From: Syntrophaceae bacterium
GTDB taxonomy: Bacteria; Desulfobacterota; Syntrophia; Syntrophales; Smithellaceae
Length of the DNA stretch: 64,000 bases
Direction: 5' to 3'
Assembly (NCBI GenBank): GCA_018056765.1
Contig: JAGPFA010000014.1
Coordinates: forward strand, 90 to 64,089
Under the pieces are notes generated by a model. The model saw only the letters and a list, made by a program, of their open reading frames with translations. It was not told the origin of the DNA and searched no databases. Shown here in pieces: positions 31,712 to 64,000 of this stretch. The translations under genes and the position numbers were made by a program. The stretch's first letter is position 1. Each line of letters starts with the position of its first letter.

Positions 31712-32668
31712 TCATTTCCAGCTTTCAAAGCTTCCCGGATATTCTTTTTTAAACTTCTCGATTACCTTGTCCAGCAAAGGGGTCTCCGGTTTGGGAAGAG
31801 GCGTGGCGGGCGAAAGTTTTGCCAGCGGCTGGTTCATTAACGGGTGCTCAAACGTCTCGGGATTGGAAAGACCATGCCACTCACGGATGCGCAGAAAGGA
31901 CAGTATCTCGTAGGGGAAGATCATCCGGTCTTCCGTGTCGAACTCATCGATTTCATCATGGGCGGTCGCCTTCGTTTCCTGAATATGAAAATCCGCCATC
32001 GCCGAAACATATTCCTGAACTTTCATAAGATCTTTTGTTTGCCAATTCGCCAGAACTTCTGCGTATGGGCTCATGTCCTCAGGATAGGAATACAGGGATG
32101 TATCTATCTTTCTTCTCCAAAAGGCAATGTCACCGCTTAAGTGCATCAGAAACCAGAAGTGACGGTAAAGCTCGCCCTTACAGTGCTGGTCCGTATGGCG
32201 CAGATCAAGTAGTGGCGTATCCAGACCATTATAAAGAATATCACCAATATCGTTTGCCTCCTTCTTCCAGACGGAAAGAATGCTCAAAGAGAGGTAAAAC
32301 ATGCTGTCATCGAGTAGTATGGATCCTCCTTGACCTGCATTTGCAAACGCATCCTCAAAACAAACCACAGCGTAGGCATACCGCGCCGCCAAAGCGAAAT
32401 CCTCCAGGCCGTCTTTCTCTTCATTCAATACGGCGTTCATGTACTGGACGAAGTGCCAGAAGTGGAGCTTGTCTGAACGGCTCGAAAGACGCCTCACTTT
32501 ATCTTCACCACTCAAATAAGCATGATATACAGACGGTGGATCATCACGAAACATCTCGAGAATTTCACCATCGTTAACCCATTCTTTTGTCCACCTGGTG
32601 ACTTTCTTTTGCAGCTTAGCCACTTCTTTTTTCATGTCTGTTTTTGCTTTCATTGCATGTATCTCCAC
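31712..32668 (-). CDS. putative immunity protein, copy 2 (cognate of the orphan toxin tip)
   Basis: 318 aa. By eye roughly 80% identical to the 33222-34163 product, with identical termini. Starts 3 nt after the orphan toxin-tip ORF. Confidence 0.55.
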   Translation of the reverse strand: MEIHAMKAKTDMKKEVAKLQKKVTRWTKEWVNDGEILEMFRDDPPSVYHAYLSGEDKVRRLSSRSDKLHFWHFVQYMNAVLNEEKDGLEDFALAARYAYAVVCFEDAFANAGQGGSILLDDSMFYLSLSILSVWKKEANDIGDILYNGLDTPLLDLRHTDQHCKGELYRHFWFLMHLSGDIAFWRRKIDTSLYSYPEDMSPYAEVLANWQTKDLMKVQEYVSAMADFHIQETKATAHDEIDEFDTEDRMIFPYEILSFLRIREWHGLSNPETFEHPLMNQPLAKLSPATPLPKPETPLLDKVIEKFKKEYPGSFESWK

Positions 32669-33221: not shown

Positions 33222-34163
33222 TCATTTCCAGCTTTCAAAGCTTCCCGGATATTCTTTTTTAAACTTCTCGATTACCTTGTCCAGCAAAGGGGTTTCCGGT
33301 TTGGGAAGAGGCGCAGCGGGCGGAAGTTTTGCCAGCGGCTGGTTCATTAACGGGTGCTCAAACGTCTCGGGATTGGAAAGACCATGCCACTCACGGATGC
33401 GCAGAAAGGACAGTATCTCGTGGGGGAAGATCATGACGTCCTCACCATCAAATTCGCTTATTTCTTCATAGCGTGTTGGTTTCGTCTCCATTACATGAAA
33501 ATCCGCCATTGCCGAAACATATTGTTGAACTTTGGATAAATCCCTTGTCTCCCAGTCTGCAAGAACAGATTTGTAAGGTTCCATATCATCAGGATAGGAA
33601 TACAGGGATGTATCTATCTTTCTTCTCCAAAAGGCAATGTCACCGCTTAAGTGCATCAGAAACCAGAAGTGTTGATAGACTTTCCCGGCTTCATGTTCCT
33701 CGTTATGCCGCAAATCAAGCAACTTATTATCCAGACCATTATAAAGAATATCACCAATGTCGTTTGCCTCCTTCTTCCAGCCGGAAAGAATACTCAAAGA
33801 GAGGCTAAAGATGCTTTCATCGAGTAGTATAGATCCGCCTTGACCTGCATTTGCAAACGCATCTTCAAAACAAACCACAGCGTAGGCATACCACGCCGCC
33901 AAAGCGAAATCCTCCAGGCCGTCTTTCCCTTCATTCAATACGGCGTTCATGTACTGGACGAAGTGCCAGAAGTGGAGCTTGTCTGCGCGCAGCCCGAGTA
34001 ACTCTGAATTGTCTTCACCATCTAAATATGCCTTAAATACATTGGGTGGATTGACCCAGAACATTTCTATCCGGTTTTCGTTTGCAACCCAATCCTTTGT
34101 CCACCTGGTGACTTTCTTTTGCAGCTTAGCCACTTCTTTTTTCATGTCTGTCTTCATTTTCAT
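33222..34163 (-). CDS. putative immunity protein, copy 1 (cognate of the full-length toxin)
   Basis: 313-aa ORF, 18 nt downstream of the toxin gene. Paralogue of 31712-32668. No family recognised. Confidence 0.55.
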   Translation of the reverse strand: MKMKTDMKKEVAKLQKKVTRWTKDWVANENRIEMFWVNPPNVFKAYLDGEDNSELLGLRADKLHFWHFVQYMNAVLNEGKDGLEDFALAAWYAYAVVCFEDAFANAGQGGSILLDESIFSLSLSILSGWKKEANDIGDILYNGLDNKLLDLRHNEEHEAGKVYQHFWFLMHLSGDIAFWRRKIDTSLYSYPDDMEPYKSVLADWETRDLSKVQQYVSAMADFHVMETKPTRYEEISEFDGEDVMIFPHEILSFLRIREWHGLSNPETFEHPLMNQPLAKLPPAAPLPKPETPLLDKVIEKFKKEYPGSFESWK

Positions 34164-54967: not shown

Positions 54968-55043
54968 TCCCCAGTAGCTCAGTCGGTAGAGCGGCTGGCT
55001 GTTAACCAGCATGTCCGTGGTTCGAGTCCGCGCTGGGGAGCCA
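54968..55043 (+). tRNA. tRNA-Asn (anticodon GUU)
   Basis: TCCCCAGTAGCTCAGTCGGTAGAGC..GCTGG-CTGTTAA-CCAGC..CGTGG-TTCGAGT-CCGCG-CTGGGGA-G-CCA. Cloverleaf folded by hand. Confidence 0.9.
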
Positions 55044-55044
55044 A

Positions 55045-55686
<642 letters not shown>

Positions 55687-55699
55687 AGACAAAATGAAA

Positions 55700-55727
55700 G
55701 AGTCCGTTTACAAACGGGCTCTTTTTT
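55700..55727 (+). terminator. rho-independent terminator hairpin (probable original tRNA-Asn terminator; IIC intron target stem-loop on the opposite strand)
   Basis: GAGTCCGTTT-AC-AAACGGGCTC followed by TTTTTT. It lies 13 nt from the intron 5' end. Confidence 0.7.
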
Positions 55728-55738
55728 CAGGTGATGAC

Positions 55739-56050
55739 ATGCCGTTTTGGGTTTACATTTTGCAAAGTGATGCGAGCGGCAGATATTATACGGGGCATAC
55801 AGACAATTTGGAGCGACGGCTTGGCGAGCACAATGATCCGGGCTATCTTGGTTCTAAGACCACGAAAAGATTCAAGGGACCCTGGAAAGTGATATGGACA
55901 CAGCAGGTAGCGAGCCGTTCTGAAGCAATGCTTTTAGAGAAGCAAATCAAAAACAGAGGAGCCTTTCGCTACGTACATGAGCTCAGCACGGCAACTTCTC
56001 CATCCGGATATTCAGCGCAAACCATTAAAATAACCGGACAAACACCTTGA
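55739..56050 (+). CDS. GIY-YIG nuclease superfamily protein (small URI-domain, COG2827-like)
   Basis: 103 aa counted from the ATG at 55739. FWVYILQSDASGRYYTGHTDNLERRLGEHN...PWKVIW...EAMLLEKQIKNRG is the GIY-YIG pattern. The longer ORF-track start would run through the terminator hairpin. Confidence 0.75.
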   Translation: MPFWVYILQSDASGRYYTGHTDNLERRLGEHNDPGYLGSKTTKRFKGPWKVIWTQQVASRSEAMLLEKQIKNRGAFRYVHELSTATSPSGYSAQTIKITGQTP

Positions 56051-56348
56051 CAAGGCTTGGCAGTTTGATACTTTAGCCACTGTTTGACATAATTTGTGTA
56101 AATGCATACGCCGGACAGCCGGGAAAAAAGAAAGCACTATACCGCAACCGCGGATTGTTCTGTGTTGATACCCTTGCGGTCTGGGACTGCATCGGGTAGG
56201 ATAAGCACGGTAAACAAATTACTCCAAAGTAGATGGCGGTGTGCCCGATCAGCCGCTTCTTGAAATCCGGCAAGGAAAAGGTAGACGAATGGGCGAAAAC
56301 AAGGGGAGTTTAGTAATCCTATTCCCAGAATTCGGATAATGGAAAGAA

Positions 56349-57845
56349 ATGATGGATGTTCTACTGACATTTACAGGATTTCATGACCCTTATTTCAAGG
56401 GATTGGTTGACCAGGAGGAACAGCCCGGCCCCATCCTTTCCCTTTTAACCAGACGCTCATTTGATCATATATTTCTCTTCGATACCCCAAGCACGCAGCG
56501 GGTTACCGGGGAAACAAAGGACGCTATCAAGAAGCTCCATCACAGGAGCGAGGTTCACGTTCTCGAAATCAACCTTGCCGATCCGACAAATTACCAAGAG
56601 ATATTCAGGGGGCTCAAAACTCATCTTAATCGCATTATTGAGAATTTTGCTTCAGCACGCTTCTTTGTCGCAGTCGCGTCGGGAACGCCCCATATGCATG
56701 CCTGCTGGGTGCTTCTTACGGCATCCGGCGAAATTCCCGCCCGCATCCTCCATGTGCGACCACCGCATTTTGTAACAAAACAACACCCGCTCGTGACCGA
56801 GGTGGATTTCTCCTCGCGTGAGTTCCCTACCGTCAGGTTCCAGGATGTATCGATTCCTGTTGAAGAGAGCCAAGCCGATGTTGATTACGTCAGAGTGCAG
56901 CTTGGCATTGTGGGAGATCACTCTGCGATGCAGCGTTCACTCGAGATGGGTGCGATGCTGGCTCCATCACAGGCCCCGGTCCTCATCTTTGGCGAGACAG
57001 GGACCGGCAAGGAGCTATTCGCACGATACATTCACCGATTGAGTGGAAGGCCGCGAGAGACCTTTGTCGCTGTAAATTGTGCAGCGATTCCAGAAGACCT
57101 TGTCGAAAGCCTGCTGTTCGGTCACAAGAAAGGAGCCTTTACTGGCGCGATTAACGACCAGGTTGGGAAGTTCGATACGGCAGATAAGGGGACTCTTTTC
57201 CTTGATGAGCTCGGCGAGCTTCCCATACGCGCACAGGCCAAGTTGTTGAGAGTTCTGCAAGATGGAATGGTAGAGCCGATTGGACAAGCCAAGGCGCATA
57301 AGGTTGACGTGCGGATTGTGTGTGCAACGAATCGGGACTTACGCAAGCTGGTGAGGCAGGGTAAATTCCGTGAAGATCTTTTTTATAGGCTCAACGTCGG
57401 CGAAATCAAACTTCCTCCGCTCCGTGAAAGACGCTCTGACATTCCCAAACTGGCGCTCCACATTCTCGATAGGTTGAATGGCTCTTTGCGACGACCCAAG
57501 AGGTTGTCGGCGGAAGCCTTGTCCAGGCTGCAATCTCACAACTGGGCGGGAAATGTTCGCGATTTGGAAAACGTCATCGAGAGGTCTGTTCTTCTTTGCC
57601 GCAACGATGTTTTGGACGCAGATGACCTCCTGATCACGGAACCGGTCACCTACGCCGACCCACTGGATGCACTTCCCGAGCCTTACGAGGGATTCTCATT
57701 GGATGCGTTTCTCGGGAGCGCTCGGAAGCAAATGATTCTCCGTGCGCTTGAAGCAGCCGGCGGCAACCAAAGCCAAGCAGCTCGAATGCTTGGGATCACG
57801 CCGCAGGCGGTGCACAAGTTCTTGCAATCGAGACCAAAGACTTAA
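56349..57845 (+). CDS. RtcR-like sigma54-dependent transcriptional activator (N-terminal RtcR-type CARF domain + AAA+ + HTH)
   Basis: 498 aa. The N-terminal ~165 aa align by eye with the E. coli RtcR CARF domain (EINLADPTNYQEIF; ASGTPHMHACWVLLTASGEIPARILHVRPP against TTGTHVAQICWFLL...LPARLIQ..PP). Also Walker A GETGTGKE, GAFTGA, and the C-terminal HTH NQSQAARMLGITPQAVHKFL. Confidence 0.75.
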   Translation: MMDVLLTFTGFHDPYFKGLVDQEEQPGPILSLLTRRSFDHIFLFDTPSTQRVTGETKDAIKKLHHRSEVHVLEINLADPTNYQEIFRGLKTHLNRIIENFASARFFVAVASGTPHMHACWVLLTASGEIPARILHVRPPHFVTKQHPLVTEVDFSSREFPTVRFQDVSIPVEESQADVDYVRVQLGIVGDHSAMQRSLEMGAMLAPSQAPVLIFGETGTGKELFARYIHRLSGRPRETFVAVNCAAIPEDLVESLLFGHKKGAFTGAINDQVGKFDTADKGTLFLDELGELPIRAQAKLLRVLQDGMVEPIGQAKAHKVDVRIVCATNRDLRKLVRQGKFREDLFYRLNVGEIKLPPLRERRSDIPKLALHILDRLNGSLRRPKRLSAEALSRLQSHNWAGNVRDLENVIERSVLLCRNDVLDADDLLITEPVTYADPLDALPEPYEGFSLDAFLGSARKQMILRALEAAGGNQSQAARMLGITPQAVHKFLQSRPKT

Positions 57846-57955
57846 ACCAGGGTTTAAGATGTTTCAACCTGGATTGAAGGATAAGATGATGCCAGGGATA
57901 ACGACAAGGATATTAACAATTGTGATAACAATGGGTTGCCGCTTATTCAGAGAAG

Positions 57956-57971
57956 TGGCATGGGCGTTGCT
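57956..57971 (+). promoter_or_regulatory. sigma54 (-24/-12) promoter candidate: TGGCAT-N5-TTGCT
   Basis: TGGCATGGGCGTTGCT is a near-consensus match (TGGCAC-N5-TTGCW). It lies 111 nt after the RtcR-like stop and 55 nt before the ATG at 58026. Confidence 0.6.
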
Positions 57972-58025
57972 TTCTATCGGTCATAGACAGACCGATCAAG
58001 GGTCCTAAACAAGAAAGGAGCAGAC

Positions 58026-58310
58026 ATGCCAAGATTTACGGTTACATCAATCATCGACGGAGATACTTTCGAGGTCAACCCCCTATGGAAATGGAATGGT
58101 ATGACGGGCACCCGAGTCCGCCCGGCGGGCTACGATGCCCCGGAACTTCACTCCTATGGAGGCCAGGCGGCTAAAGATAAATTATCAAAGCTCATATATG
58201 CAAGAGAAGTCGAACTCCGCACAGCCCACAAAATCGACCGAGGACGTTTGGTTTGTGAGGTATATTTCAAAAATAGAAATCTTGCAGATTATTTTCCTAA
58301 GTGGCAGTGA
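58026..58310 (+). CDS. mini staphylococcal-nuclease (SNase/thermonuclease)-like protein
   Basis: 94 aa. IIDGDTFEV...RVRPAGYDAPE...GGQAAKDKL...IDRGRLVCEVY follows the SNase catalytic-core pattern (DGDT, RLxGIDAPE, D.yGR). RBS GAAAGGAG upstream. Confidence 0.6.
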   Translation: MPRFTVTSIIDGDTFEVNPLWKWNGMTGTRVRPAGYDAPELHSYGGQAAKDKLSKLIYAREVELRTAHKIDRGRLVCEVYFKNRNLADYFPKWQ

Positions 58311-58331
58311 TCTGCCAAGATTTCAGAAGGA

Positions 58332-60617
58332 GTGTCTGTGAGGGATTATTCTACTGAAGCAGATGCAAGAATAGTAATAGACGATCTGCTCCGCCAAGCG
58401 GGGTGGAACCCCGCTGACAAGTCGCAGGTGCTGACCGAGGTTTCCATTCGTGACACTTGCTGGGTGATTGCCGAACCCGTTGCCCCCTATGGGTATAAAC
58501 CCAGCCGTAAAACGAAAGATGGTGATGAGATAGCAACCGGTCGCGCTGACTATGTCTTAATGGACCGTCGTGGACGCCCGCTCGCTATAGTTGAAGCGAA
58601 ACGCTCTGCGATCGAACCCTACCAAGCAAAACAGCAGGCGTTGCCCTACGCTAAAGCAATAGGAGCGCCATTCATCTTTCTTACCAATGGAGAACTCATC
58701 TATTTTTGGGATTACGGCAATGATGACGCCCGCATTGTAAATTCATTCTTTTCCTGTCGTGATCTTGAAAGAATCGTTGAAATGCGTTCTACGCGCAAAC
58801 CCCTCGCAACTATTGAAATACCGGAATATTATCTTCGCCAGGGTGAAACAAGAAAAGTGCGCCCGTATCAGCGAGAGGCCATGCAGGCACTGGATCACGC
58901 TGTGGAGCTAGGCAAACGACGCTTTTTGATTGAACTCCCCACCGGCACAGGCAAAACGGATCTCATCTCCATTTATATCAAGCGCCTCATCCAGGCAGGA
59001 CGTGCCGAGCGCATTCTGTTTCTGGTGGACAGAGAGCAGCTCGCCAAACAGGCACTCGAAGCTATTCAGGACATTCTGAACCAACACAGCAGCTACTGGT
59101 TACGCCCGGGCATGGTCCGGCAGGAACAACAGATTACGGTTTGTCTGCTCCAGACAATGATCAGCCGCTACACGGAATTCACCAGTGGCTATTTCGACGT
59201 GGTCATAGCCGATGAATGTCACCGTTCCATATACGGCTCCTGGCAGACCGCTCTCACTCATTTTGATGCGCTTCACATCGGCCTGACGGCAACACCCTCT
59301 GCATATATCGAGCGGAACACTTTCCAATTCTATCAATGCCACGACGGACAGCCGGATTTCACCTTTCCGATCCTGCAGGCCTTCAGGGATGGTTTTCTGG
59401 TGCCATACAAATTTGCCACCGGCATCACCCAAATCCTTGCTGAAGGCGCGGAAGTCGATGAACAAACATACGACCCATCCGAATTTGAACGCAAATGGAC
59501 AAACGAAGACTCCAACAGGAAAATGATGCAGGAGTTCGACCGGCTCGCCTGGGAGAACTTCAAAGAGTTGGCTCCTGGTCAAAAGACCGGGCCCGGCAAG
59601 ACCATAGTTTTTGCCATCACCAAACACCATGCCGCAAGACTCGCTTATTTCTTGAACGAACTCCATCCTGAACTCAAGGGCCAGTATGCCGAGGTTATCA
59701 CCAGCGACGTTGCCGACGCTGATGACCTCATCCGCAAATTAAAACGGGAAGAATACCCGCAGATAGCTGTTAGTGTCGGTATGCTGGATACAGGATTTGA
59801 CTGCAGGGAAATTCTCCACCTGGTAATGTGCCGCCGGGTGCGCAGTCCTATACTATACCAACAAATGAGGGGCCGCGGAACACGCACGGCAGATCATATC
59901 CAGAAGCAAAAATTTGTCATCTACGACTTCTTCGGTAACCACGACTACTTCAACGATAGCGATACTGACATTTTCAGCGGCATCGGTCGCGGACATGCCC
60001 CTGGCGGCGAACGTAAACCACCTAAACCACAGGGTGACCTTATCGAACTTGGTCTTGAGGACGAATGGCTCCACGCTGTCACTTATGTGGAGGTTGGCCC
60101 GGACGGTGGGCGATTCGACAAGCGTGACTATGTCACCAATTGGGAAACAACCGTTCGATCCGCTGTGAAGGATGACCCGATCCTCCAGAAGATACGGAAG
60201 GAAGAATTATTAACCGAAAATGAAGAGAAGGCATTGGCCGACCGTTTAAACCGGCCGGAGATGTATTTTAACGAGGAGAACCTTCGTCGAGCCTACCGCC
60301 AGCCGGGTGGCAACCTGATCGATTTTATTAAAGCCGCCCTTGGCAGGCTAAGGATAAAACCACGCGAAGAGGAATTGACCGAAAATTTCCAGGCTTGGCT
60401 GGTTGCAAAATCGATCACACCACAGCAGGCACAGTATCTTTCACTCCTCAAGAACCGCGGCATCGCACGCGGCCGCATCGAGCTGGAGGATTTGTTCCAG
60501 CCGCCACTTTCGATCTTAAATGCGGCAGGGCTTGGGGTTGAGCTATTCGGCGAGAGGGGGCTCAAGGAAATAATCCAAGATTTGAACGATTCGGTCTTCA
60601 CAAAGACAGTCGCATAA
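58332..60617 (+). CDS. hsdR: type I restriction enzyme R subunit (HsdR, EcoEI-like short form)
   Basis: 761 aa. N-terminal nuclease domain (ADYVLMDRRGRPLAIVEAKR), SF2 motifs ELPTGTGKT and DECH, and a C-terminal EcoEI_R_C-like tail. GTG start. Confidence 0.85.
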   Translation: MSVRDYSTEADARIVIDDLLRQAGWNPADKSQVLTEVSIRDTCWVIAEPVAPYGYKPSRKTKDGDEIATGRADYVLMDRRGRPLAIVEAKRSAIEPYQAKQQALPYAKAIGAPFIFLTNGELIYFWDYGNDDARIVNSFFSCRDLERIVEMRSTRKPLATIEIPEYYLRQGETRKVRPYQREAMQALDHAVELGKRRFLIELPTGTGKTDLISIYIKRLIQAGRAERILFLVDREQLAKQALEAIQDILNQHSSYWLRPGMVRQEQQITVCLLQTMISRYTEFTSGYFDVVIADECHRSIYGSWQTALTHFDALHIGLTATPSAYIERNTFQFYQCHDGQPDFTFPILQAFRDGFLVPYKFATGITQILAEGAEVDEQTYDPSEFERKWTNEDSNRKMMQEFDRLAWENFKELAPGQKTGPGKTIVFAITKHHAARLAYFLNELHPELKGQYAEVITSDVADADDLIRKLKREEYPQIAVSVGMLDTGFDCREILHLVMCRRVRSPILYQQMRGRGTRTADHIQKQKFVIYDFFGNHDYFNDSDTDIFSGIGRGHAPGGERKPPKPQGDLIELGLEDEWLHAVTYVEVGPDGGRFDKRDYVTNWETTVRSAVKDDPILQKIRKEELLTENEEKALADRLNRPEMYFNEENLRRAYRQPGGNLIDFIKAALGRLRIKPREEELTENFQAWLVAKSITPQQAQYLSLLKNRGIARGRIELEDLFQPPLSILNAAGLGVELFGERGLKEIIQDLNDSVFTKTVA

Positions 60618-60626
60618 GGAGCAGCG

Positions 60627-62276
60627 ATGAACCAGGATTTGCGCAGAAAACTAAACCGAATTACTGACATCCTCTGGGCAGGCGGTGTAACCAATCCGGT
60701 TACCTATATCGAGCAGATTTCCTATCTGATTTACCTCAAGCTGCTCGACGAAGAGGAATCCAGCCGCGAACTCCAGGCCCGGCTCATGGGAAAACCGCTC
60801 TACCCGAAACAGGCCGAACGTTTCCGCTGGTCCAAGTGGCGTTTCAAAAGCGGCACCGACCTGCGTGACTTCGTGCGTGACCACGTTTTTCCCTATATGG
60901 CTTCGCTGGTGAAGGAAGAACCGCAGATCGCCGAGTATTTCCGCGACGCTGTGCTTGAGGTTGTTGACCCGAATGTGCTCAAGCAAGTAGTGGACGAGAT
61001 CGACGGCATTGACTTCGCCAAGCTCGGCACTGACGTGAAGGGCGACATCTTCGAGTACATGCTGACCCATCTCGGGCAGTCCGCGCTGAATGGCCAATTT
61101 CGAACGCCCCGCCAGATCCGAACCATGATGGTCGAGATGATGGACCCCAATCTGGGGGACACAATCTATGACCCGGCTTGTGGTACCGGTGGTTTTCTCA
61201 TTGATGCAGTAGAGTACATTCTGGCCAGATACTCGACCGAGCCTCAGGAAGTCCCCATCTACGGCGAGGAGTGGCTGGAAAAGCGTAACCAGTCCATCAA
61301 GGAAGCCAAACAGGAAATCCCGACGCTGCAGACCTATCGAAAAGGTCCGGGCGAAAAAATCCCTGACTGGGGCATTCTTGAGCGCTCCATCTACGGCATC
61401 GACGTGTCACGCCAGATGATGAGGATCGCCATGATGAACCTGGTTTTGCACGGTATTCGTCAGGCCAACGTCAAGCGCGCCAATACGCTTTCCGATATGG
61501 GCGGCCTCACCGAGGACGATCTGAACCGCCGCTACAAAGTAATCCTTTCCAATCCGCCTTTTGCCGGTGTGCTGCCCAAAGAATCGATCCGCAAGGATCT
61601 TCCAACAAATTCCAAAAAGAGCGAGTTGCTCTTTCTAGGAGTGATGATGGAGGCCCTGGCTCCTGGCGGCCAATGCGCCGTCGTTGTGCCCGAGGGGCTT
61701 CTTTTCGGCTCTACGTCCGCGCATATGGAACTCAGGCGCAAGCTGATTGAGGATTTCGACCTTCTAGCTGTAGTGTCGCTGCCTGCCGGGGTGTTCAAAC
61801 CCTACGCCGGAGTAAAGACCGGAGTCATCGTTTTTAGAAGGCCGGCTTCGGGCGCTAAAAAGGACAAAAATACAAAGCATAAGGAAAAGATCTGGTTCTA
61901 CGAGGTGCGGGCGGACGGGTTTGATCCGGACAAGATTTCCGGCGGAGGCAGACCGGAAACTCCGGAACGAAACGACATCCCTGACCTGCTCAGCGAGTGG
62001 AAAGTTTATAAAGAATCCAAATTTACCAATCCCCCCGGTGTTGAAGGCGGAACCCTTTTGCCTGCTGGAAGCGACGACCCGCGTTGCTGGTGGACAAGCA
62101 TCAAATCCGTAGTTGAAAACGACTACAACCTTGCTGCCGGCCGCTATAAACCGCAGATCGCCGAAAAGGCGCCGGATGAAGACCCGGTGCAGCTTATCCA
62201 GGAAACACTCGCTATCGAGCGTGAGATCGCCGAAGGGTTGGAGAAACTGCTTCGGGAAGTGGAGGCAGTTGAATGA
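60627..62276 (+). CDS. hsdM: type I restriction-modification N6-adenine DNA methyltransferase subunit (HsdM)
   Basis: 549 aa. HsdM N-terminal domain (ILWAGGVTNPVTYIEQISYLIYLK), the AdoMet motif DPACGTGGFL, and the catalytic NPPF (ILSNPPFAG). Confidence 0.9.
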   Translation: MNQDLRRKLNRITDILWAGGVTNPVTYIEQISYLIYLKLLDEEESSRELQARLMGKPLYPKQAERFRWSKWRFKSGTDLRDFVRDHVFPYMASLVKEEPQIAEYFRDAVLEVVDPNVLKQVVDEIDGIDFAKLGTDVKGDIFEYMLTHLGQSALNGQFRTPRQIRTMMVEMMDPNLGDTIYDPACGTGGFLIDAVEYILARYSTEPQEVPIYGEEWLEKRNQSIKEAKQEIPTLQTYRKGPGEKIPDWGILERSIYGIDVSRQMMRIAMMNLVLHGIRQANVKRANTLSDMGGLTEDDLNRRYKVILSNPPFAGVLPKESIRKDLPTNSKKSELLFLGVMMEALAPGGQCAVVVPEGLLFGSTSAHMELRRKLIEDFDLLAVVSLPAGVFKPYAGVKTGVIVFRRPASGAKKDKNTKHKEKIWFYEVRADGFDPDKISGGGRPETPERNDIPDLLSEWKVYKESKFTNPPGVEGGTLLPAGSDDPRCWWTSIKSVVENDYNLAAGRYKPQIAEKAPDEDPVQLIQETLAIEREIAEGLEKLLREVEAVE

Positions 62277-63550
62277 AGTGGCCCACACCCGCTTTGGGAC
62301 AAATTGCCACCATCACCGGAGGGAGTACCCCAAGCCGTACTCAAGAAAAGTATTGGAACGGTTCAATTCTATGGCTTACTCCGACCGACCTCCCAACGCC
62401 TGGCAAAGGCATTACCGATGTGAGTGACACGGCAAGTAAAATTACTGAGGAAGGGTTAGCTGCAATCTCAGCACAGCTTCTTCCTGTAGGGACTGTGTTG
62501 TTCTCTTCTCGTGCAACAATTGGAAAACTTGGAATCTCAAGGGCCCCTCTCGCCACGAATCAGGGCTTTGCCAATTTCATTCCCAAAAAATTTGTTGATG
62601 CAAAGTATCTTGCCTACTGTTTGCTACACTATACAGCCGAAATCACCGCTTTGGCTGGGTCAACTACTTTCAAAGAAGTTACCAAGACTGCATTAAAGAA
62701 ATTTAAAATCCCTCTTCCCGCTCTCGCCGAGCAACGTCGCATTGTCGAAATACTGGATCAGGCGGATGCACTGCGAAAACAGCGCGCCAAGGCCAACGCC
62801 AAAGCCGCCTGCATCCTCCCCTTGCTCTTCTACAAAATGTTCGGCGACCCGGCTACGAATCCGCAGAGCTGGCCAACCAAACGGCTTGGCGATCCTAATG
62901 TGGCAACAATCAATCCAAGGTTCTCATGTAAAAATATTTCTGCTGACACAGAGTTTTCTTTCGTTCCGATGGCCGATGTTGATGAAACATGGGGGCGTAT
63001 CGTTGGCAAACAAGTGCGATCCTATTCCGAAATAATGCGGGGATTCACTGCCTTTCAAAACGACGATGTACTTTTCGCAAAAATCACTCCATGCATGCAG
63101 AACGGAAAGGCGGCTATCGCCCGAAATATGGTTAATGGGTTTGGATTCGGCTCCACGGAATTCCATGTCCTGCGTACGGGCGCTTTGTGCACACCTGAAT
63201 GGCTGTATGTTCTAGTTCGGCTGCCGTGGTTCAGAAAACAGGCAGAATCAAGCTTTACGGGGACGGTCGGGCAACAACGGGTCCCGGCAGATTTTCTTTC
63301 ACACTACACAATTGGTTGCCCGCCGATTGAACTACAACGGAAATTCTCTAGGGCAGTGATGCGCTTCCAAGAATGGGTTGAACAAAGTGACCGCAGTAGG
63401 AAAAATTTGGAGCATATATTCTCTGTCCTTCTTCACCGCGCCTTTACCGGCGACCTTACTTCCAAATGGCGCGAAGCGCATATGAAGGAAATCCTGCAGG
63501 AGATGGAACAGCAGGCCAAGGTATTAAACTTATCGAGGAACGAAGCATGA
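62273..63550 (+). CDS. hsdS: type I restriction-modification specificity subunit (HsdS)
   Basis: 425 aa. Two target-recognition domains separated by conserved helical spacers (LPPLAEQRRIVEILD-like LPALAEQRRIVEILDQADALR). 4-nt overlap with hsdM. Confidence 0.85.
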   Translation: MKWPTPALGQIATITGGSTPSRTQEKYWNGSILWLTPTDLPTPGKGITDVSDTASKITEEGLAAISAQLLPVGTVLFSSRATIGKLGISRAPLATNQGFANFIPKKFVDAKYLAYCLLHYTAEITALAGSTTFKEVTKTALKKFKIPLPALAEQRRIVEILDQADALRKQRAKANAKAACILPLLFYKMFGDPATNPQSWPTKRLGDPNVATINPRFSCKNISADTEFSFVPMADVDETWGRIVGKQVRSYSEIMRGFTAFQNDDVLFAKITPCMQNGKAAIARNMVNGFGFGSTEFHVLRTGALCTPEWLYVLVRLPWFRKQAESSFTGTVGQQRVPADFLSHYTIGCPPIELQRKFSRAVMRFQEWVEQSDRSRKNLEHIFSVLLHRAFTGDLTSKWREAHMKEILQEMEQQAKVLNLSRNEA

Positions 63551-64000
63551 AATTGCGCCGTATTGAGATCGAAAACTTTCGCGCATTTGCGCCTCCCTTG
63601 GAAATTGAGATAGATGACTTTACGGCTTTCATAGGTCGGAATGATGTTGGAAAATCATCTATTTTGGCAGCACTGACCATCTTTCTTGAAGGCGATGGCG
63701 TAAAGATTGACCAGGCCGACGGATCGCTTCATGGAGATCGTTCAAGAGTACGTATTACCTGCGAGTTCGACAATTTGCCTGAAAATATAGTACTCGACGA
63801 CGCGTATGAAACAAATCTTGCAGATGAGCATCTGCTTCGTTCAAATGGACGTCTTCGAATCACAAAACTTTACGATTGCAGCAAGTCCAAAATCAACCCT
63901 TCTATATTTATCAACGCAGAAAATCATCCTGTTGACGAAAGCAGCAAGTCTTTACTGCCGTTAACAATTCAGGAATTGAGAAAAGAAGCTGAAAATCGGC
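63547..64000 (+). CDS. AAA/ABC-type ATPase, OLD-family-like (N-terminal part, truncated by the window end)
   Basis: Open to the window edge. MKLRRIEIENFRAFAPPLEIEIDDFTAFIGRNDVGKSSILAAL is the typical N-terminus and Walker A of the AAA_15/OLD/GajA/AriA-type clade. Its ATG overlaps the hsdS TGA (ATGA). Confidence 0.6.
   Translation, partial: MKLRRIEIENFRAFAPPLEIEIDDFTAFIGRNDVGKSSILAALTIFLEGDGVKIDQADGSLHGDRSRVRITCEFDNLPENIVLDDAYETNLADEHLLRSNGRLRITKLYDCSKSKINPSIFINAENHPVDESSKSLLPLTIQELRKEAENR

Follow-up and report, generated by a model that had tools for sequence, protein, structure and literature searches.

RtcR, the activator of the divergent rtcBA genes, combines a CARF sensor domain with a sigma-54 AAA+ domain and a helix-turn-helix (HTH). 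In Salmonella it binds 5' tRNA halves ending in a 2',3'-cyclic phosphate and then oligomerises, it does not bind RNA with a 3'-phosphate end, and RtcR without its N-terminal domain is constitutive; this ligand is established for Salmonella RtcR only (Hughes et al.). Section 7 and Supplementary File 4 of Makarova, Anantharaman, Grishin, Koonin and Aravind (Front Genet 2014, PMC4012209) describe as 'not linked to Rtc system' a second family, in which an RtcR-like CARF domain is combined with an NtrC-like AAA+ domain and an HTH. These parts of the paper propose sigma-54-dependent activators of downstream genes, whose CARF domain senses phage-infection ligands. Supplementary File 4 gives the order regulator, HsdR, HsdM, HsdS and ATP-binding protein in Desulfobacterium autotrophicum, regulator, HsdR, HsdM, HsdS in Desulfococcus oleovorans and Geobacter uraniireducens, and a Hahella chejuensis regulator followed by HsdM, HsdS and HsdR. 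Bell et al. (eLife 2024, PMC11090510, Fig. 8) report RtcR homologues at the head of superoperons with type I restriction-modification (R-M) and other systems, and put forward the same signalling idea. Here we describe a locus of this kind in a Syntrophaceae bacterium (GCA_018056765.1, contig JAGPFA010000014.1). The analysed window is 64,000 nt long and the block under study covers positions 56349-64000, in which an earlier note had recognised an RtcR-type activator apparently wired to a nuclease, a type I R-M system and an OLD-like ATPase. We consider it probable that the locus represents a copy of an inducible-defence cassette that is self-contained, horizontally mobile and governed by a CARF/sigma-54 activator.

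The regulator gene (56349-57845, + strand) encodes a 498-aa protein with CARF, sigma-54 AAA+ and Fis-type HTH domains. The three profiles that the earlier note had proposed to check were all matched: Pfam RtcR (PF06956) at 41.7 bits (cutoff 23.1; residues 38-143 aligned to positions 40-145 of the 183-position profile), Sigma54_activat at 231.5 bits (profile positions 1-167 of 168), and HTH_8, with AAA_lid_14 in addition. The GAFTGA loop and the Walker motifs (GETGTGKE, DELGE) can be read in the translation, in agreement with the RtcR-type N-terminal CARF domain and the intact AAA+ core noticed before. The label RtcR itself did not hold. The NCBIfam RtcR equivalog NF038308 scores 350.3 bits against a cutoff of 650, and the match ends at model position 433 of 530, before the C-terminal region. 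The PADLOC model PDLC01995 'RtcR_PspF2--CARF_AAA_HTH' is instead matched almost end to end (469.9 bits, E 2.8e-141, with residues 3-493 aligned to positions 2-476 of the 481 in the model), while the PADLOC RtcR model reaches 243 bits, and identity to E. coli RtcR is 32% over residues 28-412. From these comparisons the regulator is best classed as an RtcR-related CARF/AAA+/HTH sigma-54 activator and not as RtcR proper. The name RtcR_PspF2 comes from PADLOC only, and a text search of the literature for it gave no match.

In the AlphaFold (AF2) model of the first 186 residues (predicted local distance difference test score, pLDDT, 84.8) the N-terminus appears as a well-formed, canonical-looking CARF domain. 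The top Foldseek match is the Csm6 structure 6tug with bound cyclic hexaadenylate (cA6; E 1.7e-8, probability 1.0), and further matches are Csm6 8pe3, Cam1, Card1, Can2 and Cad1 (the last four also all with probability 1.0) and a ring nuclease. Csm6 6tug is also the sole match of the CARF sequence profile in the PDB, and the regulator scores 25.9 bits with Pfam Cas_Csm6_CARF and 1e-11 to 1e-13 with the PADLOC Csx1/Csm6 and CARF_HEPN models. A structure of an RtcR CARF domain is neither among the Foldseek PDB matches nor reported by Hughes et al., and the regulator's CARF domain can therefore not be called unlike that of RtcR. A search of viral contigs for related CARF domains gave no match.

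Downstream of the regulator we found a predicted sigma-54 -24/-12 promoter, TGGCATGGGCGTTGCT (57956-57971, + strand), an exact consensus match that is the sole exact occurrence of TGGCAYGN4TTGCW in the 64 kb and is unique also in the 21-kb extended locus. The element, described as near-consensus in the earlier note, is conserved in related loci. We surveyed 64 loci with a complete regulator and enough downstream DNA, using a window of 400 nt past the stop codon and a score of at least 10/12. The element was present 3' of 54 complete regulators, nearly always 95-120 nt after the stop, whereas among 2904 windows of 400 nt drawn at random from these loci only 0.9% reached the score. Across loci the GG and GC blocks stay constant while the bases of the N4 spacer vary, which argues for selection on function and not for recent common ancestry.

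Two putative enhancer sites lie between the regulator and the promoter. Site 1 (57842-57857, TTAAACC-AG-GGTTTAA) overlaps the regulator stop codon, has zero mismatches to TTNAACCNNGGTTNAA and is centred at -106 from the -24 element, with conservation at -103 to -107 among the loci. Site 2 (57863-57878, TTCAACC-TG-GATTGAA) has one mismatch to the palindrome TTNAACC-N2-GGTTNAA; its centre is at -85, a distance of 21 bp from that of site 1. Both inverted repeats had been noticed before and are present at their positions; in the alignment anchored on the promoter the second, however, is not TTCAA-N6-TTGAA but a copy of the same 16-bp palindrome as the first. At no more than one mismatch the palindrome occurs only twice in the window, with 0.24 occurrences expected. 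The two sites are present in 43 of 51 distinct loci with centres at about -106 and -85 and a spacing of 21 bp in 41 cases and 20 bp in 2, on a background of 0.024 sites per 150 nt. In the classical layout for enhancer-binding proteins, a pair of dyad sites separated by two helical turns is placed about 100 bp 5' of a -24/-12 promoter. The predicted geometry of promoter and palindromes at our locus matches this layout, with the palindromes as putative binding sites. A site for integration host factor between enhancer and promoter was considered as well and is unsupported, as the strict consensus WATCAANNNNTTR occurs in 4 of the 51 loci and a looser motif at -29 in 9. Elsewhere in the window, the sequence TGGCATGGTCTTTCCA, which nearly matches the sigma-54 consensus but has CC in place of the -12 GC, occurs twice on the minus strand (31864-31879 and 33374-33389); the identity of the two copies at a distance of 1.5 kb suggests a repeated sequence there.

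Alignment of the CARF domain retrieved 80 loci from species-representative genomes, belonging to Thermodesulfobacteriota, Nitrospirota, Planctomycetota, Acidobacteriota, Verrucomicrobiota and Gammaproteobacteria. Cargo genes were counted by tblastn of the window proteins against these loci. The 94-aa gene that follows the promoter in our window (58026-58310, see below) is found at a distance of 400 nt or less from the regulator in 46 of 58 loci, and a type I R-M operon follows the regulator in 36 of 45, in 30 cases with the same EcoAI-like HsdR family and in 6 with a different one. Most of the remaining loci have cargo of another defence type. The order regulator, SNase-like gene (staphylococcal nuclease, SNase), HsdR, HsdM, HsdS recurs in Thermodesulfobacteriota, Nitrospirota, Planctomycetota, Acidobacteriota and Gammaproteobacteria. 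In three loci (L027, L053 and L076) HsdR is located directly after the promoter with no SNase-like gene. Four loci carry an alternative cargo of VWA/TerY-like proteins, an FtsK- or CDC48-like ATPase, a Card1-like CARF endonuclease and a PP2C phosphatase or protein kinase. In one locus a Mrr-family endonuclease and a large MmeI/Eco57I-type methyltransferase lie behind the regulator front end, and one further locus has an AAA_15/21 ATPase as cargo. An example for the VWA-type module comes from Pseudoalteromonas phenolica (NZ_CP173161; L040:5143-9985), where the BREX genes pglZ and brxL end directly 5' of the CARF regulator. The predicted arrangement of regulator, promoter, enhancer and cargo thus recurs across phyla, as one putative front end that is reused for several defence cargos at fixed spacing.

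The 94-aa protein is encoded by the first gene of the operon (58026-58310, + strand), with an AAGGAG ribosome-binding site 5' of its start. The earlier note had called it an SNase-like nuclease, and the fold was borne out by structure while the Pfam match stayed under threshold (SNase, PF00565, 18.0 bits with a cutoff of 21). A profile search of PDB sequences gave no SNase at E of 1 or below, only chance-level matches to PDE-delta and GlnRS. As the sequence searches failed to place the protein, its assignment needed structure prediction. The AF2 model (pLDDT 89.3) has the topology b1-b2-b3-a-b4-b5 and finds staphylococcal nuclease as the top Foldseek match (probability 1.0, E about 4e-5, query-normalised TM-score 0.64-0.70). 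In total there are 238 PDB matches with E of 0.001 or below, and the 50 best, which are those listed, are all SNase variants (TM-score 0.62-0.70). A weak hhalign alignment (E 0.009) places D13 (within IDGDT), R32, D37 and E40 on SNase D21, R35, D40 and E43, and by manual reading R74 stands opposite SNase R87. The positions of IDGDT, R32, D37, E40 and R74 are invariant or nearly so in the family, which comprises at least 876 database clusters, almost all of exactly 94 aa. The model stops shortly past strand 5 with a helix of only four residues, compared with about 149 aa for a full SNase domain, and the protein is accordingly modelled as a minimal SNase, an OB-type (oligonucleotide/oligosaccharide-binding) core without the C-terminal helices.

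The association of this gene with the regulator was also examined in reverse, with 80 metagenomic loci picked via the 94-aa protein alone, where orthologues were defined by at least 56% identity and at least 1.7 kb of upstream sequence. By manual count the CARF regulator lies directly upstream in 27 of 31 SNase-like orthologues (27 of 33 in a script summary at 48% identity or more), and in none of 14 more distant SNase-like proteins. Three exceptions indicate that the link is strong but not obligate. In L110 the order is BrxL, insertion sequence (IS) element, SNase-like gene, VWA, with an IS transposase in the regulator's position, which looks like a replacement of the regulator by the IS. In L124 (224-6706) an orthologue of 59% identity is located between an SNF2/NOV_C helicase and a DUF1156 methyltransferase, a DISARM-like setting without the regulator, and in L126 an orthologue is part of a methyltransferase/SIR2 locus, again without the regulator. 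As a separate observation, a perfect sigma-54 promoter, TGGCACGCGTCTTGCT, was noticed at about 3880-4000 of L135, 5' of a 48%-identical SNase-like gene, with no CARF regulator detectable within 4 kb upstream.

The SNase-like gene is followed on the same strand by hsdR (58332-60617), hsdM (60627-62276), hsdS (62273-63550) and the 5' part of an ATPase gene (63547-64000) that continues beyond the window. Re-calling of the open reading frames (ORFs) reproduced this gene string and the positions of all its members, with spacings of 21 nt (SNase-like/hsdR), 9 nt (hsdR/hsdM) and -4 at both hsdM/hsdS and hsdS/ATPase, the ATPase start overlapping the hsdS end as ATGA. HsdR is an EcoAI/EcoEI-like type I restriction subunit with ResIII, Helicase_C, HSDR_N and EcoEI_R_C domains in Pfam and a match to REase_I in PADLOC; the NCBIfam EcoAI/FtnUII family is matched at 271 bits, under its cutoff. 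HsdM is a type I N6-adenine methyltransferase (Pfam N6_Mtase 168 bits and HsdM_N, PADLOC MTase_I 467 bits), and HsdS is a specificity subunit with two target-recognition domains (TRDs), corresponding to two stretches of Methylase_S in Pfam and to Specificity_I in PADLOC. The window therewith encodes the complete set of type I R-M components, namely an HsdR helicase-nuclease, HsdM and a two-TRD HsdS.

For the DNA past the window end we used a 496-kb metagenome contig (L001), in which the operon continues with the full 608-aa ATPase and then a DUF2130 gene. The ATPase fragment in the window matches Pfam AAA_15. The full-length protein matches AAA_15 (240 bits, residues 1-375) and DUF2813 (51 bits), and in PADLOC AriA is best at 199 bits (AriA being the ATPase only), with Old at 95 bits and several GajA models, one of which aligns as far as residue 533. 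A Toprim domain was looked for in residues 376-608 and gave no Pfam family match. The OLD/AAA-type ATPase of the earlier note thus stands as an AAA_15/ABC-type ATPase with an AriA/GajA/Old-like N-terminal domain, whereas 'OLD-like' is unconfirmed. Beyond DUF2130 and up to about 15 kb downstream the contig carries an IS transposase, RhuM, an AAA_15/AAA_21/DUF3696 ATPase, a 325-aa ORF, DUF488 and MscL. Several of these are again defence-type genes on the same strand (L001:16415-20167). RhuM matches PADLOC PDC-S05 at 522 bits, and the AAA_15/AAA_21/DUF3696 ATPase, 552 aa long, matches PDC-M55A, NsnB and HEC-03B and has the unannotated 325-aa ORF next to it. No second sigma-54 promoter was found 5' of these genes in the 21-kb extended locus. 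The transposase is of the DDE type and was called at L001:14621-16048, with no gene called at the matching place in the contig L002. In blastn the alignment of L002 extends to L001:15976, and only the next stretch of about 615 nt (L001:15977-16591) is missing from L002, the copies differing there. A CoCoNuT system downstream was considered and rejected, as no McrBC-like CnuB/CnuC or helicase-HEPN genes are present within about 15 kb. Genes for RtcB and RtcA are likewise absent after the operon in L001.

The limits of the cassette can be seen in blastn comparisons with four contigs (L005, L006, L007 and L012), in each of which similarity begins at 56226, with 84-93% identity. A conserved leader of 123 nt (56226-56348, + strand) hence forms the left edge of the shared DNA, and presumably the regulator's own promoter lies within it. 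Identity stays at 85-93% as far as about 62282, the point at which the recognition domains of hsdS begin to differ. HsdS proteins are only 30-40% identical between cassettes that are otherwise about 85-93% identical, which indicates that recognition domains have been swapped. Large contigs assigned to other phyla that share the cassette include one of Syntrophobacteraceae (1.2 Mb) and one of Anaerohalosphaeraceae (360 kb). Judged by these alignments, the cassette appears to move as a unit from 123 nt 5' of the regulator through hsdM.

A tRNA-Asn (GTT) gene at 54968-55043 (+ strand; ARAGORN, Rfam tRNA 66.9 bits) marks the neighbourhood of the cassette, as stated in the earlier note, and in the close relatives L005, L006 and L011 tRNA-Asn is likewise found 0.7-2.2 kb 5' of the regulator. 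The GC content falls from about 0.57-0.59 to about 0.49-0.53 across the tRNA. No repeat of the tRNA-Asn 3' end of at least 13 nt was found in L001, nor an integrase or attachment repeat, so that the ends of the island are undefined. The cassettes of L004 and L001 are 99.8% identical but have different upstream flanks (L004:1-2783 versus L001:1-2777), with genes for AMP-binding enzymes and no tRNA in L004, while L001 and L003 have tRNA-Asn together with FrhB and a thioesterase. The block shared with L004 begins 6 nt past the tRNA position, and either the L004 contig is chimeric or it shows the cassette in a second genomic context or at a second insertion site. Two further elements were noticed between the tRNA and the cassette. 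A group II intron RNA without an ORF, about 560 nt long, is located on the minus strand (55045-55601), starting 2 nt past the tRNA-Asn 3' end (Rfam D1-D4-3 141.5 bits, D1-D4-1 59.9 bits, Intron_gpII 46.7 bits); it contains no reverse-transcriptase ORF, and the block common to L001 and L004 begins at its edge. Between intron and cassette there is a gene for a 127-aa GIY-YIG protein (55667-56050, + strand, Pfam 63.8 bits), outside the DNA shared across lineages, which begins at 56226.

In our preferred reading, the activator would bind the two palindromes that start at its own stop codon, 106 and 85 bp 5' of the -24/-12 promoter. A nucleotide- or RNA-derived ligand, possibly arising in phage infection, would fill the CARF domain and, by analogy with RtcR, give rise to the active oligomer, which would spend ATP to open the sigma-54 promoter complex at 57956-57971. 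A single transcript would then comprise the SNase-like nuclease, hsdR, hsdM, hsdS, the ABC-type ATPase and DUF2130. Several points weigh against this reading: about 16% of the complete regulators have no good promoter match, about 20% of the loci have no SNase-like gene, rpoN was not located in the source genome, and we found no experimental studies of the regulator family in the literature. In addition, a type I R-M system kept off before induction would leave the chromosome without methylation, and extra constitutive expression of at least hsdMS, via read-through or internal promoters, is therefore likely. Since no terminator-like site separates regulator and operon on the + strand, read-through into the operon would be possible, and internal promoters within the operon are plausible. 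A scan for sigma-70 promoters and terminators gave counts at shuffle expectation (7 sigma-70 sites, 7.2 expected) and is thus uninformative on internal promoters.

That the regulator is a genuine RtcR which targets rtcBA elsewhere, and stands next to the R-M genes by an accident of island insertion, is largely refuted and highly improbable. Its Pfam RtcR domain is over threshold and NCBI calls the relatives 'RtcR family protein', but the equivalog score falls far below the cutoff (350 of 650) and RtcR_PspF2 is preferred by 470 to 243 bits. Tblastn with E. coli RtcA and RtcB (E of 1e-3 or below) found no homologue of either in the window, as the earlier note had stated, nor in any of 84 loci with flanks of up to 10 kb each; rtcBA is thus not the conserved partner at these loci, where inspection covered about 10 kb per side. 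Moreover, promoter and enhancer sites occur at fixed downstream distances in dozens of distant loci, and the cassette travels as a unit with the regulator and its 123-nt leader. This supports the downstream sigma-54 promoter with its defence operon, and not rtcBA, as the probable conserved local target of the regulator. A further explanation is that the sigma-54 promoter mainly controls the SNase-like gene, while the hsd genes are largely constitutive or transcribed by read-through and at most boosted by the CARF regulator. It would account for the SNase-like gene staying with the regulator when the cargo further downstream changes, it agrees with the lack of a terminator after the regulator gene, and Bell et al. 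(PMC11090510) expect internal RtcR-independent promoters. The 21 nt between the SNase-like gene and hsdR, however, contain no terminator-like hairpin, hsdR and hsdM are only 9 nt apart, sigma-70-like sites are not enriched, and in L027, L053 and L076 HsdR directly follows the promoter. Protection of the host by R-M requires continuous methylation, which again speaks for this explanation, and on balance we regard it as unlikely.

The nature of the ligand allows for different answers. The RNA- or tRNA-damage ligand of the earlier note was drawn from analogy, and structurally the CARF domain is closest to cA6-binding Csm6. It might instead sense a cyclic oligoadenylate or a related molecule from another immune system (type III CRISPR or another cyclase) and not damaged tRNA, with the cassette as the transcriptional output. 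The nearest structures, cA6-bound Csm6 CARFs and then Cam1, Card1, Can2 and Cad1, point in this direction, together with 6tug as the sole profile match, the Csm6 and CARF_HEPN model scores and the Card1-like CARF nuclease among the alternative cargos. Yet fold similarity does not define ligand specificity, an RtcR CARF structure is absent from the matches and offers no comparison, and no cyclase or cas10 was noticed in the loci, for which no systematic search was made; a cyclic oligoadenylate is possible, if doubtful. SNase-type enzymes leave 3'-phosphate ends, and as RtcR ignores RNA of this kind, one may speculate that, if the ligand is RtcR-like, the small nuclease would rather remove it than make it. 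More generally, the 94-aa protein may belong to the sensing module, making or destroying the CARF ligand in a feedback similar to that of ring nucleases, so that the cassette would turn a nucleotide immune signal, possibly cA6-like, into R-M transcription. The gene does stay with the regulator whichever cargo follows, but a few orthologues are found in other defence loci without it, and we consider such a role quite improbable. If true, it would mean transcriptional cross-talk from oligonucleotide signalling to classical R-M.

R-M systems are usually seen as constitutive innate immunity. If our preferred reading of an inducible cassette is true, the restriction subunit would be made only on a CARF-sensed signal, a design unlike constitutive R-M, and the cassette raises two questions, namely by what means host DNA remains methylated and which signal is sensed. 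The earlier note held that this logic had not been described for such modules. Its central inference is sound, but was already published computationally, the architecture and logic in section 7 and Supplementary File 4 of Makarova et al. (2014, PMC4012209) and the R-M superoperons in Bell et al. (2024, PMC11090510). The promoter/enhancer geometry, the SNase-fold first gene and a front end common to several cargos at fixed spacing were not found in those parts of the 2014 paper or in Bell et al. What is added here is a testable cis-regulatory map, made up of two 16-bp palindromes, a -24/-12 promoter and a conserved first gene. A front end that is reused for several cargos and moves between phyla would offer a practical entry to inducible restriction and to non-CRISPR CARF ligands.

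Compared with the PspF-like family in section 7 and Supplementary File 4 of Makarova et al. (2014), our locus has the same domain architecture, the same co-directional position of the regulator 5' of HsdR (with EcoEI_R_C), HsdM, HsdS and an ATPase, and the same proposed logic of sigma-54 activation by a CARF domain sensing infection-derived ligands. In the examples given there HsdR lies 34-54 nt past the regulator with no small gene between, whereas the 94-aa gene intervenes here. The R-M neighbourhood file contains no SNase-like gene, and a description of promoter or enhancer sites was not found in these parts of the paper. The superoperons of Bell et al. (2024), with type I R-M, TerY-P and CoCoNuT, likewise have an RtcR-like CARF activator 5' of long co-directional strings of defence genes, and their operon extensions match the alternative cargos found here (VWA/TerY-like proteins, FtsK- or CDC48-like ATPase, PP2C, kinase). 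CoCoNuT differs from our locus by its McrBC-like and helicase-HEPN genes, and Bell et al. mention BrnT-like small genes and no thermonuclease-like gene, in contrast to the SNase-fold gene described here. With E. coli and Salmonella RtcR the regulator has in common the CARF, sigma-54 AAA+ and HTH architecture and the match to Pfam RtcR, and presumably also the activation principle of ligand-induced oligomerisation known for RtcR. Its N-terminal TFTGFHDP motif and its Fis-type HTH are not aligned with E. coli RtcR, its CARF domain is more similar to canonical Csm6-type CARFs, and its predicted targets are co-directional downstream genes and not the divergent rtcBA. WYL-domain regulators of the BrxR/CapW type are ligand-sensing factors at the 5' end of varied defence systems and act as sigma-70-dependent repressors. 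They likewise represent regulated immunity, for which the cassette described here would employ an ATP-driven sigma-54 activator with a CARF sensor instead.

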